From an uncultured Lachnospiraceae bacterium (GTDB taxonomy: Bacteria; Bacillota; Clostridia; Lachnospirales; Lachnospiraceae): a DNA stretch of 64,000 nt. The notes under the pieces are model-generated. The model worked only from the letters and a program-made list of their open reading frames with translations, was not told the DNA's origin and ran no database searches. Of the stretch, positions 31,452 to 51,300 are shown in pieces (position 1 is the first letter of the stretch; the number at the start of each line of letters is the position of its first letter). Position numbers and translations under genes: made by a program. The stretch spans positions 1,577-65,576 of the forward strand of contig CAJTQG010000007.1 in assembly GCA_910578605.1 (NCBI GenBank), read 5' to 3'.

Positions 31452-32549
31452 CTATGCTCCCACTAGTTTACCTAATTGTTCTATCAAGCCTCCATTGCCA
31501 TTCACGGAAATTTCGCCAACCCTGTGGCATATCTTTTCCAAATACTCCAATTCTTTTAGCTTATAAAGAGTTTTATTTTCATCCATCAGCTTAGCCGTAT
31601 TCAACAATGACCTGGTGGAAGCTACCTCCTCCCTCCTGGCAATCACATTTGCCTGGGCCGTCTTTTCAGCCACAAGCACCGAATTCATTATGTTCTGAAT
31701 TTCCCCCGGCAATATAATATCCTTAATACCTGCGGAAATAAATTGTACACAGAACAACTCTTCCTTCTCCTTTAGCTTTGCATAAATCTCCTTTGATATA
31801 TTGTCCTTCAATTCCAAAATCTCATCCAGCTTGTAGTTTCCGGTCATTTCCCGAATCGCCAACTGTACACAGGAATACAACTGTCCCTTCAAATCAGAAA
31901 TCTTTTCAATAAATTCCACGGCATCCCTAATTTTATACATACAAGTCACATTCATACGAATACCGATTTTATCCTTTGTGAGAATTTCCTGACCTACAAT
32001 ATCCATCGTCTTCTGCTTCATATCAAAAATCTTAACAGAAACCTCCCGTGAATAATTCCAGAAAGAATAAATACCTTTTGTAAGCTGCCTCTGCAAAATA
32101 TTATTATAATAGAGCAAGCCTACCTCGCCCTCTCCGATTGCCGCCGTCTTATAATACTTTATAGGCACAATGGAGAGCATCTGCTTTGTCACCTGGCCGC
32201 CAATCTCCGGCTGTTCCATAGAAACCAGCTTAACGGAATACTTGTCAAATACATTCCAGAACACATACTCCTTTTTTGCTGCCAGTGAATTGAGTTTACC
32301 GTTTACATACAAGAATCCCAAAAAGCCGTCCTCTATTTGTATATGTATTGTTGCCTGCCGAAATGCGTCATCCTTTTCCAACACCTGGTACGGCGCCTCT
32401 TCAAACTCTACCTCCCCCTTCATATCCTCCACATGGACATGGTACCCAAGCATTTTAGAAAAGTGATATACCCCCGCGCCAATCATCTTTACAAAAATTC
32501 CATTTTTAATTACAAATCCTGCCTGATTGTCTTTTATAATTATCTTCAT
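31452..32549 (-). CDS. SPFH/band-7 domain protein
   Basis: 365 aa with stomatin/flotillin-like SPFH core features; no TM helix is evident at the N-terminus. Confidence 0.5.
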   Translation of the reverse strand: MKIIIKDNQAGFVIKNGIFVKMIGAGVYHFSKMLGYHVHVEDMKGEVEFEEAPYQVLEKDDAFRQATIHIQIEDGFLGFLYVNGKLNSLAAKKEYVFWNVFDKYSVKLVSMEQPEIGGQVTKQMLSIVPIKYYKTAAIGEGEVGLLYYNNILQRQLTKGIYSFWNYSREVSVKIFDMKQKTMDIVGQEILTKDKIGIRMNVTCMYKIRDAVEFIEKISDLKGQLYSCVQLAIREMTGNYKLDEILELKDNISKEIYAKLKEKEELFCVQFISAGIKDIILPGEIQNIMNSVLVAEKTAQANVIARREEVASTRSLLNTAKLMDENKTLYKLKELEYLEKICHRVGEISVNGNGGLIEQLGKLVGA

Positions 32550-32912
32550 AATTTACCTCATTTCTGTGCTATCCTATTTCTGTGCTATCCTATTGATATA
32601 TTTTTCCCTTTCTTTTAACTGCCGCAAAGCTGCCTCCACATTTCCATATTGCGGAAGAATCATTGAGCAGGCAATAAAGTGGGAGGACGCCGGAACATTG
32701 ACTGCCAGTTTCTTGAGATAACTTGCCGTTTATTCCTTTGCTGTCCCTCTTCATTTATGCAAACCTATCCAAACAATCTATTGTCCAAACAGATTTTCAT
32801 AAATACCTGCGGTATCCTGACTCTCCAGGCAACATAGTAAATTTGCCTTCTCCTCTCGGTGCGGGTAGAGGAGCTCTGCCGCATTTTCATGGTGAAATGT
32901 CTTTACAAACAT

Positions 32913-33075
32913 TTTAGAGATGGATTCGAACCATCGGGCTTAAAAGGCCTGCCATTTTCGTTGTGTGCTCTACCCGTTGAGCTACTGCTTTCGCAGGGTG
33001 GATTCGAACCACCAACACCACAATACCTTATCCCATATAAGGTGAAATATTTATGGTATACCAAACAGTACACTG
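32913..33075 (-). pseudogene. two tRNA-like fragments (T-arm/acceptor-like and D-arm-like segments; no canonical cloverleaf)
   Basis: Minus strand carries GGTGGTTCGAATCCACC and GATGGTTCGAATCCATC (canonical G53-TΨC T-arms) plus a GTAGCTCAACGGGTAGAGCAC D-arm. Acceptor and anticodon stems do not pair in any register tried. Confidence 0.3.
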
Positions 33076-33191
33076 CCGGCACCGCCGGGCAGGAAATGCA
33101 ATCCATGCACTCCAATACCCAAGCATAAATAAATTATTTCCAAAGTAATATTCATCTTCCGGCCGGAGTAATAATAGCCGGAGTTATCATT

Positions 33192-34433
33192 TTATCCCTT
33201 TACAACGCCAACCGTTTTCAGCTTGCGTATGGGGGTAACCAAATCTTTTTGCTGCTCCATTACCATATCTATATCCTTGTAGGCAAATCTACATTCCTCT
33301 GCCACGTCATTTTTCTTATGCTTTCCTAGTACAATTCCCTGCTCCTTCAAATCCACCATCACCTGCTCTGTTGTAAACGCAGCCATGGCGCCGCTTCTTG
33401 AGTAATTTCTTCCTGCTCCGTGAGAGGATGTGCAGAAGGTTTCAGGATTCCCCTTACCCTTCACCACATAGCTGTAGGAGCCCATAGCGCCTGGAATCAC
33501 AGCCAACTCCCCTTCTCTTACTCTTGTGGCACCCTTGCGGTGCACCCACACATTTTCCCCATAGTGATTTTCTATGGCGGCGTAATTGTGATGGCAATTG
33601 ATTTCACTGTTAAATTCTACAGTAATGTCCGTAAACTTTTCAATTTGCGTTTTTACCACATCACACACTGCCTCCAGCATACTTGCTCTGTTCTCAAAAG
33701 CATAATCCATTGCCAACTGCATCCAATTCACATATTGCCTTCCCTGGGGCATATTGATTGGCAGGAATGCCAATCTGTAAGTTTCCGGCACACTGCTGTA
33801 CCAAATGTTATTTAACTCTCTTGCCATTTTATGAAAGTAATCACAGATTTCCTTACCTAGGTGGCGGCTTCCCGAATGAATCATAATACATAAATAACCA
33901 TCCTCATCCTCCTGCAATTCGATAAAATGATTGCCCCCGCCAAGAGTACCTACTTGATAATAGCCCTCGTCAATCAAATGAAGAAGCTCCTGATTTGTCT
34001 CATACTTATCCATTTCCTTCTTTGCCAGGTCTAGGACTTTAGACACCTGAGGCTGCTTATGCTTCATAGTGCCAACAGGAACCGCCCGCATAATGGCGCC
34101 TACAATGGACTGAATCATCGTTCCGTTTCCTGTCTGAATATCTTTGATTTCCTCTACCTTCACATTGGTTGCGGCAAAAACCATTCCGCATCCAATATCC
34201 ACTCCAACCGCATTGGGAATAATGACATCCTTAGCGGCGATTACACCGCCGATTGGCATTCCCTTTCCTGCGTGGGTATCCGGCATTAAACATACCCATT
34301 TATGTATAAAGGGAAGATTTGCTAAATGGTACGCCTGTTCTAGACAATTTTCTTCCAAATCACTTTTTTCCTTCAACCACACCTTCACCGGAAATTTTGT
34401 ATTTTCATCATATAAAACAAACATCACATCCAC
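33192..34433 (-). CDS. rtcB: RNA-splicing ligase RtcB
   Basis: PDTHAGKG, GGGNHF, HNYA and SSHGAGR metal-binding and active-site motifs; 413 aa. Confidence 0.85.
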   Translation of the reverse strand: MDVMFVLYDENTKFPVKVWLKEKSDLEENCLEQAYHLANLPFIHKWVCLMPDTHAGKGMPIGGVIAAKDVIIPNAVGVDIGCGMVFAATNVKVEEIKDIQTGNGTMIQSIVGAIMRAVPVGTMKHKQPQVSKVLDLAKKEMDKYETNQELLHLIDEGYYQVGTLGGGNHFIELQEDEDGYLCIMIHSGSRHLGKEICDYFHKMARELNNIWYSSVPETYRLAFLPINMPQGRQYVNWMQLAMDYAFENRASMLEAVCDVVKTQIEKFTDITVEFNSEINCHHNYAAIENHYGENVWVHRKGATRVREGELAVIPGAMGSYSYVVKGKGNPETFCTSSHGAGRNYSRSGAMAAFTTEQVMVDLKEQGIVLGKHKKNDVAEECRFAYKDIDMVMEQQKDLVTPIRKLKTVGVVKG

Positions 34434-34454
34434 TTCCTCTCTTTTTATTTATAT

Positions 34455-34560
34455 TTTAAATGTTTGCGAAACTCCTTCGAAAAAGTTCATAATTGTGCAA
34501 AATTTACAATTTTTGTTAGATGCAATTCGGTTTGTGTTTTAGAAGTTCTTAGTGTTCTTT
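34455..34560. repeat. ~110 bp repeat (copy A), shared with 50715-50830, containing palindrome AATTGTgcaaaatttACAATT
   Basis: aaaagttcataattgtgc[a/g]aaatttacaattt…ttagatgc…gttcttagt[g/a]ttcttt is conserved between the two loci. Both copies lie just 5' of minus-strand gene starts. Confidence 0.5.
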
Positions 34561-34701
34561 ACTTAACATAGCAATATTTGCACACGAGGGGCAAATAAGA
34601 TGACAATTGAGCCATGGAGGGCGAATTGGCATCGGTTGCGTGCTCTTCCAATCAATATGATAAGAACACTTAGTACTTCTTAGACACAATTAGATGCATC
34701 T
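34518..34701. mobile_element. MITE-like element / IS terminal inverted repeat remnant
   Basis: Imperfect ~42 bp inverted repeats (ttagatgca…taagaagt.cttagtgttctt) flank a ~100 bp core with no ORF. Confidence 0.35.
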
Positions 34702-35101
34702 AATGAAATTAGTAAATTTGTACAATACAAAACTAAAAATAATGAGTTTCGCAATTACCTATATTTATATTTTTAAGTTTGTTGATTTTGTTATATTTGT
34801 TTTTTATTTTTATTTGCTTTTTTGTTTTTGTTACATTAACGTTATCCGCTTTATGAATTTTATGAATTAATTCTAATTGATGTGTTTTCTTATGTATGCA
34901 TTATATGGCATCATCTGGAAAATATCATTTCAAAAAAGTTGCGAACTCTTATCTTTGCAAATTTATTTTAATTTAGGATACAATGTTAAAACTTCAAAGT
35001 TTTGAAAGATATGAGTGCTACAATATACTAGAACATTTCTTTTATTTATGATACTCTATATAATGATTTTTAATCTCTTTAAAATAGAAAGGAACACTGC
35101 C

Positions 35102-36376
35102 ATGTCCGAATTTAAAGAATTGGTCAAAAGTTTTGCTAAATCAAGAGAATATGTTCGTGATTTTTTTGTATATGGTTTTAAAACAAGAGAAGATTTTAAC
35201 AGGAAAAGCACACGAACCTATGACAACGAGCGACGCCGAATTGAATGCTGGCTTCAAGGCTTTGTAAAACAAGACTACACTAAAAAAGGAAAAAATATTT
35301 CCCTGGCCATAGACAGCAACCTGCTTGACACAAACCCTCTGTTTCGTGTCTGGAAAACGAAAAGCTTTACTGATAATGATTTGATATTGCACTTTACCCT
35401 TCTTGATTATCTAGCCCAAAACCCCTGCTGCAGTGCGGAAATGCTGACAGATGCACTGAACCTAAAATATAACCTTCTCTTTGATGTGCAGACTGTGCGC
35501 CGCAAATGCAACGCATATGTAAAGGAAGGTATTTTTATTAAGACAAAGCAAGGTAAAGAAATAAAGTATTCTGCCGCCAAAGATTTTACTCCTCTATTTC
35601 ACCGCTATCCCGCTTTCAGGCAGGCAATTACTTTTTATCAACTAGCCGAACCACTGGGTATTATAGGAAATACTATTATGGATAACTTCTCTATGGATAA
35701 CTTTTCCTTTCGGGTAAAGCACAGCTTTTTTGTTCACACCTTAGAGGATGAAGTTTTGTTGGAACTGCTGCATGCTATGCATTCTAAAGAAAGCATTTCC
35801 TTGGAGCTTTGCAGCACGAAGAACCAAAACAAAAGCACCCGCACTTGTATTCCCCTGCAGATATTTACAAGCACCCGCACAGGCAGACGTTTTTTGTGTG
35901 CATATCAGCCCAAATCCAAACGTTTTAACTGTATCCGCATAGATTCCATCAAAAACGTAACTCCCCTCCCCCCTGACTCACAGGAAAACAAAGATTTTTC
36001 ACGATTATGGGACGAACACCAAAGTAATCTCATAAAAAACCATCCTTATATATGGGGCGTTTCCTTTCAAAATACAGACAAAACTCACCTTCAACATGTA
36101 AAACTTACTCTTCGCATCAGGGAACCGGAGGAACATTATATAATGGAGCGATTAATAAGGGAGGGCAAAGATGGCATTATCACCTGCATTGCCCCCAATA
36201 CATACACCTACGAAAAAGATATTTTTGATGCCAATGAAATGCTGCCATGGCTTCGCACATTCATAGGCAGAATTGTGAATTTTACTTGCAGCTCCCCTGT
36301 GGTGGAGAGACGATTCTTTCAGGATTTACAAAAAATGTATGATATGTATGATATTAAAAATGCATTTAGGGACTAA
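35102..36376 (+). CDS. WYL-domain transcriptional regulator (wHTH plus WYL plus WCX-like C-terminus)
   Basis: A wHTH-like region (LLDYLAQNPCCSAEMLTDALNLKYNLLFDVQTVRRKCNAYVKEGI) precedes a WYL-like core (RTGRRFLCAYQPKSKRFNCIRIDSI). RBS AAAGGA lies before the ATG at 35102. Confidence 0.5.
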   Translation: MSEFKELVKSFAKSREYVRDFFVYGFKTREDFNRKSTRTYDNERRRIECWLQGFVKQDYTKKGKNISLAIDSNLLDTNPLFRVWKTKSFTDNDLILHFTLLDYLAQNPCCSAEMLTDALNLKYNLLFDVQTVRRKCNAYVKEGIFIKTKQGKEIKYSAAKDFTPLFHRYPAFRQAITFYQLAEPLGIIGNTIMDNFSMDNFSFRVKHSFFVHTLEDEVLLELLHAMHSKESISLELCSTKNQNKSTRTCIPLQIFTSTRTGRRFLCAYQPKSKRFNCIRIDSIKNVTPLPPDSQENKDFSRLWDEHQSNLIKNHPYIWGVSFQNTDKTHLQHVKLTLRIREPEEHYIMERLIREGKDGIITCIAPNTYTYEKDIFDANEMLPWLRTFIGRIVNFTCSSPVVERRFFQDLQKMYDMYDIKNAFRD

Positions 36377-36490
36377 TATTTTGTGAATATTCATTGTCAA
36401 ACATGAAACAATGTGTTAAAAAGGTAATTGTAACAAAGCTTAAGCAACAAGATGGGATATTATTATATCGCATGCTTATTTGTGATAGGA

Positions 36491-37477
36491 ATGGATATCA
36501 ATATGAATTTATTTAGCGAAACATACAATTGTTATTATCAGATTATGAAGGAAATTTTAAAGGATAAATCTTCTTTTACCCTGGATGAGCTGAGAACAAA
36601 AATCAGCTGCCATGGCTTCGAGGAAAGTCTGCTCTATATAATACCTAAGCTTTCCTCAGGGGAATGGAGCCTCCTTAAAAAAAACGGAGAACTTTACTGC
36701 ACTAAGTTGTCTGGCAGTTTTTATGTTCCTTTAACTACACTGCAAAAATCCTACCTGAAAACTATTTTACAAGACAAAAAAATGCAGCTTTTTCTTGATG
36801 AGCCAAGCATAACAAATCTTACAACAATGCTGAAAGATGTACCCACATTGTGGGACAACGACACCTTTTACTACTATGACCGCTACAGTGACGGAGATGA
36901 TTTTACGGCTCCTGCTTATAAAAAACATTTCCGCATGCTGCTTGCCGCTATTGAACAAAAGCGTTTTGTAGATATAGACTATACCTCCCCCTCACGGAAT
37001 CGGGTACACCATCACTACCTGCCATGCCGTTTAGAATACTCTATTAAAAACAATAAGTTTCGGCTTTTGGCAAAAACTCTCCCCCTGCACAAAGGTGGGT
37101 TGGAGACTTTAAACTTAGAGAGAATGACAAAGGTAGAGTTCTTAGACCAGTTTGCCGAAAACACCGTAGACTTAAATCAATTGATTCGTTCCTCCTATTA
37201 TAAGGAGCCTGTCTGTCTTCATATATATAATGAGAGAAATGCATTAGAGAGAACAATGCTTCACTTTGCAAATTATGAAAAAAATACTACTAAAATAGGG
37301 GATAATTTATATGAATGTCTGATTTATTATAATAAAATGATGGAAACCGAACTGTTGATAGAGGTGTTGTCCTTCGGACCGATGCTGAAGGTGCTTGGCA
37401 GCGAACATTTCCTAAAACAAATAAAAGGAAGACTTTACAGACAAAATCGCCTGGAATGCCTTCCTAATCACACATAA
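36491..37477 (+). CDS. WYL-domain protein (paralogous partner, WYL plus WCX-like)
   Basis: WYL-like core (YLPCRLEYSIKNNKFRLLAKTLP…LNLERMTKVEFL) plus a C-terminal WCX-like region. Confidence 0.45.
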   Translation: MDINMNLFSETYNCYYQIMKEILKDKSSFTLDELRTKISCHGFEESLLYIIPKLSSGEWSLLKKNGELYCTKLSGSFYVPLTTLQKSYLKTILQDKKMQLFLDEPSITNLTTMLKDVPTLWDNDTFYYYDRYSDGDDFTAPAYKKHFRMLLAAIEQKRFVDIDYTSPSRNRVHHHYLPCRLEYSIKNNKFRLLAKTLPLHKGGLETLNLERMTKVEFLDQFAENTVDLNQLIRSSYYKEPVCLHIYNERNALERTMLHFANYEKNTTKIGDNLYECLIYYNKMMETELLIEVLSFGPMLKVLGSEHFLKQIKGRLYRQNRLECLPNHT

Positions 37478-50714: not shown

Positions 50715-50830
50715 ATTAGGCATTGCAAAACACATTCAAAAAGTTCATAATTGTGCGAAATTTACAATTTACATCAGATGCGATAGGATTTGTGATTTAG
50801 ATGTTCTTAGTATTCTTTATTGTATAAGGC
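50715..50830. repeat. ~110 bp repeat (copy B) in the 5' UTR/promoter of the secreted protein gene
   Basis: Homologous to 34455-34560, including the AATTGTGCgAAATTTACAATT palindrome and one TIR-like arm. Confidence 0.5.
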
Positions 50831-50845
50831 AAAATTTACTATACA

Positions 50846-50958
50846 AATAAAAAAGGCTGCAAGAATATAGAAATTCCTGCAACCGAACTATCCTAGGTTA
50901 ATATCCCCCTTAGACTCCCAGCTTTGCGTCCATGCATTTCTGTCATGTTTGCCTTTAG
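50846..50958 (-). promoter_or_regulatory. c-di-GMP-I (GEMM) riboswitch-like leader, copy 3, with intrinsic terminator
   Basis: Minus strand: AAAGGCAAACAUGACAGAAAUGCAUGGACGCAAAGCUGGGAGUCUAAGG…GGUUGCAGGAAUUUCUAUAUUCUUGCAGCC UUUUUU. The hairpin covaries relative to copies 1 and 2. Confidence 0.6.
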
Positions 50959-51300
50959 ATTTTTGTATAGAACAGAACACGCTATTTAATGTTAACATTA
51001 CCCCTCTTTTATGTCAACTACTATTGGCACAATTTGTCAAATATTGTTAACAGTCCAGCCTAGGTCTTTGCATCAATTCATACTTCCACTGAACCATTAC
51101 AAATTCCTGTTACTATTCTCAAAATAATTTGCTTTATCCCTTGCCTTTTCTTTCCATTAGATGTATACTTTGTTCGTTTAAATCTATTGTTTTATATTTG
51201 TTTATATGTAACGATTCAGAACCATGCAGATTTATACAAAACCAACAGTTCCATATTGTTGTTTGTGTTTATCAATACATTGAAGGAGGAACCTCTTCCC

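Follow-up and report, generated by a model that had tools for sequence, protein, structure and literature searches.

A tandem WYL-domain pair divergent from rtcB as a candidate PafBC-like regulator of an RNA-repair operon in Lachnospiraceae

RNA-repair operons are widespread, but the only regulator whose inducing signal is understood is the proteobacterial CARF protein RtcR, which activates rtcBA upon tRNA damage (PMC7790460). What, then, controls an operon that has the RtcB ligase of the Rtc system and whose locus contains neither an adjacent RtcA gene nor an AAA+ regulator of the RtcR type (CARF/sigma-54)? This question is raised by a 64,000-nucleotide stretch of DNA, hereafter the window, from an uncultured Lachnospiraceae bacterium (assembly GCA_910578605.1, contig CAJTQG010000007.1, positions 1,577 to 65,576 of the forward strand). 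In the window, the RNA ligase gene rtcB (33192-34433, minus strand, 413 residues) is divergent from two adjacent plus-strand genes, here named WYL-A (35102-36376, 424 residues) and WYL-B (36503-37477, 324 residues). A sequence-only reading of this DNA had proposed that the two proteins are PafBC-like WYL regulators that control rtcB. The follow-up described here points in the same direction: WYL-A and WYL-B probably form one hetero-oligomeric, ligand-sensing transcription factor of the PafBC type, serving a single RNA-repair promoter.

Conservation, natural fusions and a candidate operator

The three open reading frames were found where the sequence-only reading had placed them, with rtcB divergent from the other two. 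The rtcB translation holds the quoted PDTHAGKG, GGGNHF and SSHGAGR motifs and matches the full Pfam RtcB profile (2e-111), and the rtcB products of relatives show 72-83% identity. A search for WYL-A homologues returned 2053 proteins, and the relatives with named sources are mostly Lachnospiraceae. Scanning of one genome per species revealed relatives in 307 stretches, from which 80 (L001-L080), again mostly Lachnospiraceae, were fetched; with three closer relatives added, 83 loci were compared, among them those of the cultured carriers Sporofaciens musculi WCA-9-b2 (L035), Lachnospiraceae bacterium JLR.KK009 (L022), Roseburia sp. 1XD42-69 (L069) and Lachnospiraceae bacterium 3-1 (L076). WYL-B lies directly downstream of WYL-A in 82 of them (tblastn), the exception being a 2-kb contig, and in 74 of the 83 loci, which come from different species, the pair has rtcB on its other side in divergent orientation, while the genes outside this module vary. 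A phage origin was considered and rejected, as no relative of WYL-A was present in the viral contigs collection.

The operon behind the pair exists in three versions. The type seen in the window, with rtcB followed by a structured non-coding RNA (ncRNA) and a Band-7 gene, accounts for 46 loci; a Band-7 homologue lies downstream of rtcB in 46 of the 83. In 18 loci rtcB stands alone, and in a further 10 the operon consists of tRNA-like RNAs, a DUF2828/DUF7788-vWA protein and rtcB; DUF2828 is a family that we take to be TROVE/Ro-like. All three versions stand behind the same WYL pair and the same promoter motif.

The strongest evidence for a joint function comes from gene fusions. Four matches to the N-terminal domain of WYL-A measure 781-855 residues, and the three that were compared (P0257, P0265 and P0289) are all natural fusions of WYL-A and WYL-B. 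The C-terminal half of each fusion aligns with the whole of WYL-B (E = 1e-53 to 1e-62, 32-38% identity), and the N-terminal half of P0257 is 42% identical to the whole of WYL-A. On the contig of P0257, the genes for Band_7 and RtcB, both leftward, are followed by the rightward fusion gene, with a variant of the promoter motif between the operon and the fusion gene; the contig also carries the ncRNA (42.6 bits). Because such natural fusions exist, the two proteins appear to work as one unit, like PafB and PafC, which are themselves fused in Arthrobacter (6sj9). Taken with the synteny, the fusions indicate at the sequence level that WYL-A and WYL-B act together and are tied to the rtcB operon.

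The putative site of their action is a predicted divergent promoter-operator core at 34900-34946 (minus strand). The predicted rtcB promoter comprises a -35 box ATGATA (34928-34923), a 17-nucleotide spacer and a -10 box TATAAT (34905-34900), which appears in the spacer between the genes as ATTATAT, that is, TATAAT on the rtcB strand; it was the best minus-strand site in the promoter scan, with 10 of 12 matches. Next to it lies an invariant 23-bp motif, ATCATTTCAAAAAAGTTGCGAAC (34924-34946), containing GTTGCGAAC and an A6 tract. The motif overlaps the weak -35 box, extends upstream of it and abuts the promoter of the pair itself. It is present in all 43 loci with short spacers (119-306 bp), in a fixed register to the -10 box, and in the window as well. 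Beyond the motif, on the side away from rtcB, are WYL-A promoters that have extended -10 boxes and whose distance from it varies. By a strict regular expression the motif occurs once per locus in 63 of the 83 loci, and once in the 64-kb window, where 0 occurrences are expected. Among 241 million metagenome records, 22 exact matches were found, all of them beside rtcB and/or WYL-A where the contig is long enough; where insertions part the pair from rtcB, the motif remains on the rtcB side. Because its exact matches are confined to rtcB/WYL-A loci, the motif is, as far as sequence goes, a dedicated local candidate operator. It is asymmetric rather than palindromic, which fits a heteromeric binder. 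A sigma-54 promoter, as used with RtcR, was rejected by eye, the GG/GC spacing being unsuited. The proposal that the pair controls rtcB is thus backed by the synteny in 74 of 83 loci, by a fused regulator beside rtcB and Band-7, and by a promoter motif exclusive to this locus.

Folds and family of the two proteins

The gene starts were set from homologue alignments. The WYL-A reading frame spans 35015-36376, and its true start is the ATG at 35102, since all homologues open with MSEFKEL. For WYL-B, the mechanical reading frame covers 36452-37477, and a start at 36503 is likely because homologues are about 320 residues long and open with M(N/E)LFSE. In public gene calls (P0121) WYL-B appears as a protein of 357 residues (36404-37477) that starts about 27 nucleotides past the WYL-A stop codon.

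Profile searches place both proteins near the edge of the WYL family. Pfam WYL (PF13280) matches WYL-A at E = 3e-4 (21.1 bits) and WYL-B at E = 6e-4 (20.1 bits), both just below the gathering cut-off of 21.8 bits, and the PADLOC WYL profiles match them at 1.5e-7 and 6.3e-10, respectively. The Pfam search returned no WCX match for either protein, and profile searches of the two families against PDB sequences gave nothing significant, a PafBC chain appearing only at E = 2.1. The assignment therefore rests on predicted structures. AlphaFold models built from the family alignments reached moderate confidence (pLDDT 64 for WYL-A and 74 for WYL-B). When these were compared with the PDB by Foldseek, the top 32 matches of each model were all WYL regulators, with a best E of about 1e-10, including DriD (8tp8, 8tpk), PafBC (9fnd, 6sj9), BrxR (7qfz, 7t8k), CapW (7tb5, 7tb6, 9c5g) and WYL1 (6oaw). 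The best match of WYL-A is DriD 8tp8 (8e-11), followed by PafBC, BrxR, CapW and WYL1. WYL-B matches PafBC 9fnd at 4.7e-11, and DriD 8tp8/8tpk with TM-scores of 0.56-0.58 over about 350 columns. Both models align over 330-370 columns with full-length DriD, PafBC, BrxR and CapW, so that by predicted fold each consists of a winged helix-turn-helix (wHTH), a WYL domain and a WCX-like domain in this order, with a linker between wHTH and WYL in WYL-B.

These results modify the sequence-only reading in some respects. The WYL-like core that it assigned to both proteins holds by fold and by PADLOC, and the sequence-profile check for WYL similarity was borderline, with Pfam just short of the cut-off; the WCX-like C-terminus is upheld by fold and has no Pfam counterpart. 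The wHTH, which had been ascribed to the first protein, is found in WYL-A and by fold also in WYL-B. The two proteins were further described as adjacent paralogues. They do stand in tandem, but a comparison of the two families by hhalign gave E = 0.036 and aligned the WYL region alone; close paralogy was accordingly rejected, and they are at most very distant paralogues.

WYL-A carries in addition an N-terminal domain (residues 1-94), which is its most conserved part, near-invariant and rich in arginine. This domain of about 94 residues falls below pLDDT 50 in the AlphaFold model and matched no family in the Pfam search. It was found by phmmer in 602 clusters among 1.84 billion representatives, standing at the N-terminus in nearly all of the matches listed.

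The comparison with PafBC (6sj9, 9fnd) shows clear likeness. In both cases two distantly related HTH-WYL-WCX proteins are encoded in tandem, and each pair is fused in some lineages (here in P0257, P0265 and P0289); the folds match at an E of about 5e-11, and in both systems an asymmetric site (here a candidate) overlaps, and lies just upstream of, the -35 region of a promoter with a good -10 box. The tandem order in 82 of 83 loci, the fusions and the fold matches together bear out the PafBC-like character suggested earlier. Unlike PafBC, the present pair belongs to Bacillota instead of Actinobacteria, shows no detectable sequence similarity to its counterpart, has the extra N-terminal domain on WYL-A, and apparently serves a single RNA-repair promoter rather than a DNA-damage regulon.

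The tRNA-like RNA and the enlarged spacer

Downstream of rtcB, a structured ncRNA of about 210 nucleotides (32916-33127, minus strand) precedes the last gene of the operon, which encodes a Band-7/SPFH protein of 365 residues (31452-32549, minus strand; Pfam Band_7 1.9e-25). About 230 nucleotides 3' of rtcB are conserved in 47 loci (nhmmer). The RNA consists of a 5' domain with two hairpins (about 33042-33124) and a tRNA-like core (32916-33026), in which a 5-bp UUGUG/CACAA stem surrounds a first T-arm, an acceptor-like hairpin capped by a GNRA loop and a D-arm; after this stem follow an anticodon-like hairpin and a second T-arm. RNAalifold predicted 44 pairs over the whole region and found compensatory changes in 24. 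Within the core, pairing holds in 98.2% of the alignment cells, and both partners have changed in 16 of 25 pairs, a level reached by none of 500 shuffles, and sliding of the core partners lowers pairing to 20-56%. The 5' domain behaves similarly (97.1% of cells paired, 9 pairs changed on both sides). A long-range closing helix, AUAAA/UUUAU, is possible; it is 92% paired, A/U-rich and shows little covariation. With a covariance model of this RNA (R1), the window copy reached 106.7 bits and scores in 46 loci exceeded 70 bits, in every case just after rtcB and on the same strand.

The RNA resembles known families only in part. Rfam YrlA (RF02553) scored 36.4 bits at 32939-33031 (minus strand) and 35.7 bits in L077, against a gathering score of 69, and Rfam tRNA scored 22 bits against 29; ARAGORN found no tRNA in the ncRNA. 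A genuine tRNA or a complete YrlA downstream of rtcB was therefore rejected. The likeness to YrlA lies in a permuted order of stem, T-arm, acceptor-like hairpin, D-arm and stem, aligned over positions 23-88 of the family, which are the only ones to align in L077; the Ro-binding stems of YrlA are unmatched here, and the 5' and 3' modules are extra. No Rsr/TROVE gene lies near the ncRNA within the window. In Salmonella, the rsr-yrlBA-rtcBA operon includes both tRNA-like Y RNAs (YrlA) and the gene of a scaffold protein (bioRxiv 10.1101/312249). According to the same preprint, Burroughs and Aravind predicted in 2016 a system of RtcB, Band-7 and 'b7a-tRNA' that is interchangeable with a Ro-like protein and Y-like RNA. 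The present locus agrees with that prediction: rtcB stands beside a Band-7 gene with a tRNA-like ncRNA between, and the Band-7 module swaps with a TROVE-like (DUF2828/vWA) module bearing its own tRNA-like RNAs. It differs in that the RNA is a composite of about 210 nucleotides with 5' hairpins, a YrlA-type permuted domain, an additional anticodon-like hairpin and a second T-arm, and so no simple mimic of a tRNA.

Several observations were made on related modules. In the DUF2828/vWA operon, two tandem tRNA-like RNAs lie after the promoter motif and before the DUF2828 gene (L015, 6470-6800, minus strand), and the same is seen in L029, L030, L036, L039, L045, L058, L070 and L073. Each has an acceptor-like closing stem of 8-9 bp, a conserved AAGUCUUGnCAAAGACUU hairpin and a T-arm, with a D-arm in the first only; the region was matched by nhmmer at E values of 1e-27 to 1e-69, and neither Rfam nor ARAGORN recognized it. 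In L009 and L025 and in the metagenome loci L098 and L102, the WYL pair, motif, ncRNA and Band-7 gene are present with no rtcB between, so this RNA/Band-7 module evidently needs no neighbouring ligase gene to be placed under the pair. In L048 (2971-3532, minus strand), the Band-7 gene is immediately followed by an array of six canonical tRNA genes. In the window, a perfect 16-nucleotide tandem duplication (ATTTCTGTGCTATCCT, two copies) occupies 32560-32591, just upstream of the Band-7 start codon. The neighbours of the locus in the window encode, besides the Band-7 protein and the two WYL proteins, GNAT and HD-GYP proteins, a membrane protein, an ABC ATPase and a GntR regulator.

In the window, 668 bp separate rtcB from WYL-A, compared with 119-306 bp in the 43 related loci. 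The sequence-only reading had called this region unusually long and marked by mobile-element scars; its length was borne out, whereas the supposed scars turned out to be a full-scoring RNA element of the TwoAYGGAY family (RF01731). The match at 34527-34694 (plus strand) scores 97.7 bits, well above the gathering score of 43, and covers model positions 1-168 of 168, which places the element within the family. It has the long basal stem of the Bacillota versions, and its two terminal loops are ACGAGG and AUGGAG, as opposed to strict AYGGAY. It forms the centre of an imperfect palindrome of about 293 bp (34462-34754) with a predicted folding energy of -103 kcal/mol (z = -9.8), which ends in the terminal inverted repeats TTGCGAAACTC and GAGTTTCGCAA and is flanked on both sides by the direct repeat TATTTATATTTT. 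The palindrome lies in the rtcB 5' untranslated region, past the conserved promoter and ahead of the start codon, and is antisense to rtcB. A partial second copy at 50715-50850 (plus strand), about 82% identical to the left arm, adjoins a cyclic di-GMP (c-di-GMP) riboswitch; it lies 16 kb away and suggests that the element is repetitive or mobile in this genome. A 2026 preprint describes a TwoAYGGAY repeat family that is multi-copy and mobile-like and whose Bacillota members have long basal stems (bioRxiv 10.64898/2026.09.22.753630).

Could this element be a working part of the circuit, as a cis-regulatory RNA or a protein sponge that controls rtcB or the WYL genes? A high-scoring, very stable structured RNA between promoter and start codon, transcribed in antisense within the rtcB 5' untranslated region if the predicted promoter is used, might be read in this way. 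Yet no copy was found in L001-L080 (nhmmer, E <= 10) or, by Rfam, in 10 of these loci with enlarged intergenic regions, and it is missing from the aligned spacers (214 and 252 bp) of the closest relatives L081 and L082, whose WYL-A proteins are 82% and 70% identical. Together with the inverted repeats, the flanking direct repeats, the distant partial copy and the mobile character of the family, this makes a circuit role very improbable, and a regulatory design was rejected. The region is long because the element of about 293 bp was inserted, and sequence comparison makes it a bystander, a recent insertion private to this genome and outside the conserved circuit, which may nevertheless change rtcB expression in this strain. 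In many other species (L003, L004, L007, L011, L032, L094, L095 and others) the spacer has grown to 0.9-4.8 kb, as if the divergent promoter region repeatedly took up insertions. Three c-di-GMP-I riboswitch aptamers (RF01051; 48-70 bits, above gathering) were also detected on the minus strand of the window, two of them in tandem near 3.5-3.9 kb (3495-3591 and 3807-3910) and the one mentioned above at 50875-50963.

Mechanism, signal and rival explanations

In the mechanism proposed for the pair, a WYL-A/WYL-B heteromer would bind the invariant asymmetric motif ATCATTTCAAAAAAGTTGCGAAC, and a signal of nucleic-acid damage bound by the WYL domains would switch the operon on. Its output would be RtcB, the tRNA-like/YrlA-like ncRNA and the Band-7 (SPFH) protein. 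RtcB would then rejoin RNAs whose cleavage left 2',3'-cyclic-phosphate and 5'-OH ends, and the ncRNA and Band-7 protein may assist it as a cofactor or scaffold, a role that has been proposed for Ro and Y RNA. Activation in the manner of PafBC is slightly preferred, owing to the weak -35 box, the asymmetric site at and upstream of it and the PafBC-like pair, with a CapW- or BrxR-like derepression almost equally probable. The logic would be the same as in the RtcR-rtcBA system of E. coli and Salmonella, where a ligand-sensing regulator is likewise encoded divergently beside an RtcB operon and a damage signal leads through the regulator to an RNA ligase (PMC7790460). However, a WYL pair at a predicted sigma-70-like promoter stands here in place of a CARF-AAA+ activator of sigma-54, RtcA is missing, and Band-7 replaces Ro/Rsr in the window.

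The nature of the signal is the most tentative step. The analogy with RtcR, and the prediction in the literature that WYL and CARF transcription factors sense cyclic-ended RNAs and regulate RNA repair (PMC9503650), make RNA fragments such as tRNA halves with a 2',3'-cyclic phosphate a conceivable ligand, with somewhat less than an even chance of being correct. By analogy with PafBC, DriD and CapW, single-stranded DNA (ssDNA) is a less likely candidate, still to be taken seriously. To our knowledge, all characterised transcription factors among the matches, namely PafBC, DriD and CapW, bind ssDNA and not RNA, and this weakens the RNA-ligand step. It is one of several points that tell against the proposal of an RNA-repair regulator as a whole. 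Membership of the WYL family depends on predicted folds of moderate confidence and on weak profile matches; promoter-like sites are no more numerous than in shuffled sequence, the boxes being consensus matches only; in 9 of the 83 loci the pair occurs without rtcB in the stretch fetched; and some metagenome contigs contain rtcB and the motif with no WYL-A within 1.6-3 kb.

The choice of ligand leads directly to the most serious rival, namely that the two proteins monitor DNA damage as PafBC, DriD or CapW do. Their WYL domains would then bind ssDNA, and the rtcB operon would be one of the outputs of a DNA-damage response and not of an RNA-damage sensor. The best fold matches (DriD, PafBC and CapW) were indeed solved with ssDNA or are known to respond to it, and the Salmonella rtc RNA-repair operon is reported to be expressed in the SOS response (PMC9879122). 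Against this, the exact motif is confined to the RNA-repair locus, with no sign of a wider DNA-repair regulon, and the genes under it are centred on RNA (RtcB, tRNA-like RNAs, and Band-7 or the TROVE-like DUF2828). Moreover, WYL1 of Cas13d systems, likewise among the matches, is described as binding single-stranded RNA. The DNA-damage explanation is thus rather unlikely, without being negligible. The same WYL1 (6oaw), being among the significant fold matches, together with the arginine-rich, near-invariant extra domain of WYL-A, would also suit RNA-binding accessory factors that bind the tRNA-like ncRNA or damaged substrates, aid RtcB post-transcriptionally and are not transcription factors at all. 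This is improbable: both models have a wHTH and align over their full length with DNA-binding regulators, the genes are divergent from the operon, as is typical of regulators, and a 23-bp DNA motif invariant between species, in register with a -10 box, calls for a DNA binder encoded nearby. That the adjacency to rtcB is incidental, and that the pair regulates only itself or unrelated genes, is strongly disfavoured. The 9 of 83 loci without rtcB in the fetched stretch could be cited for it, but four of these exceptions (L009, L025, L036 and L058) retain either the ncRNA and Band-7 gene or the DUF2828 module beside the pair; the other 74 loci retain the arrangement, the same genes surround the fused regulator, and the motif tracks rtcB.

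Returning to the preferred reading, a PafBC-like pair dedicated to the RNA-repair promoter, a bolder form of it joins several of the elements above. In this form the heteromer senses damaged RNA and not ssDNA; in one version the tRNA-mimic RNA of the operon acts as a decoy for anticodon or T-loop nucleases, its cleavage products being the inducer, while the N-terminal domain of WYL-A is a new DNA-binding module that reads the 23-bp motif. As a whole this combination is unlikely to be correct. If true, damaged RNA would for the first time be shown to be the signal of a WYL transcription factor, and the cell would use a dedicated sentinel RNA to notice an attack on its RNA and answer it with RtcB.

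WYL regulation of RNA-repair genes and the Band-7/tRNA-like module have both been predicted before, and nothing in the locus falls outside known categories; the general idea that WYL transcription factors control RNA-repair pathways is likewise present in the literature (PMC9503650). The literature searched contains no description of a PafBC-like arrangement, paired or fused, that includes a new N-terminal domain, of a single invariant operator for the pair, of a composite RNA of about 210 nucleotides with a covariation-supported structure, or of a swap of Band-7 and DUF2828 modules under one regulator. Next to RtcR, the locus presents a different type of sensor, a PafBC-like WYL pair, sometimes fused and apparently dedicated to one promoter. 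It raises the questions of what WYL domains sense when they guard RNA-repair genes, whether the Band-7/tRNA-like and Ro-like/Y-RNA modules that are swapped under the same regulator really serve RtcB, and whether activation in the PafBC style extends beyond Actinobacteria. The module is present in many gut Lachnospiraceae species, some of them cultured, and the 23-bp motif and the covariance model provide direct handles for experiments and annotation.

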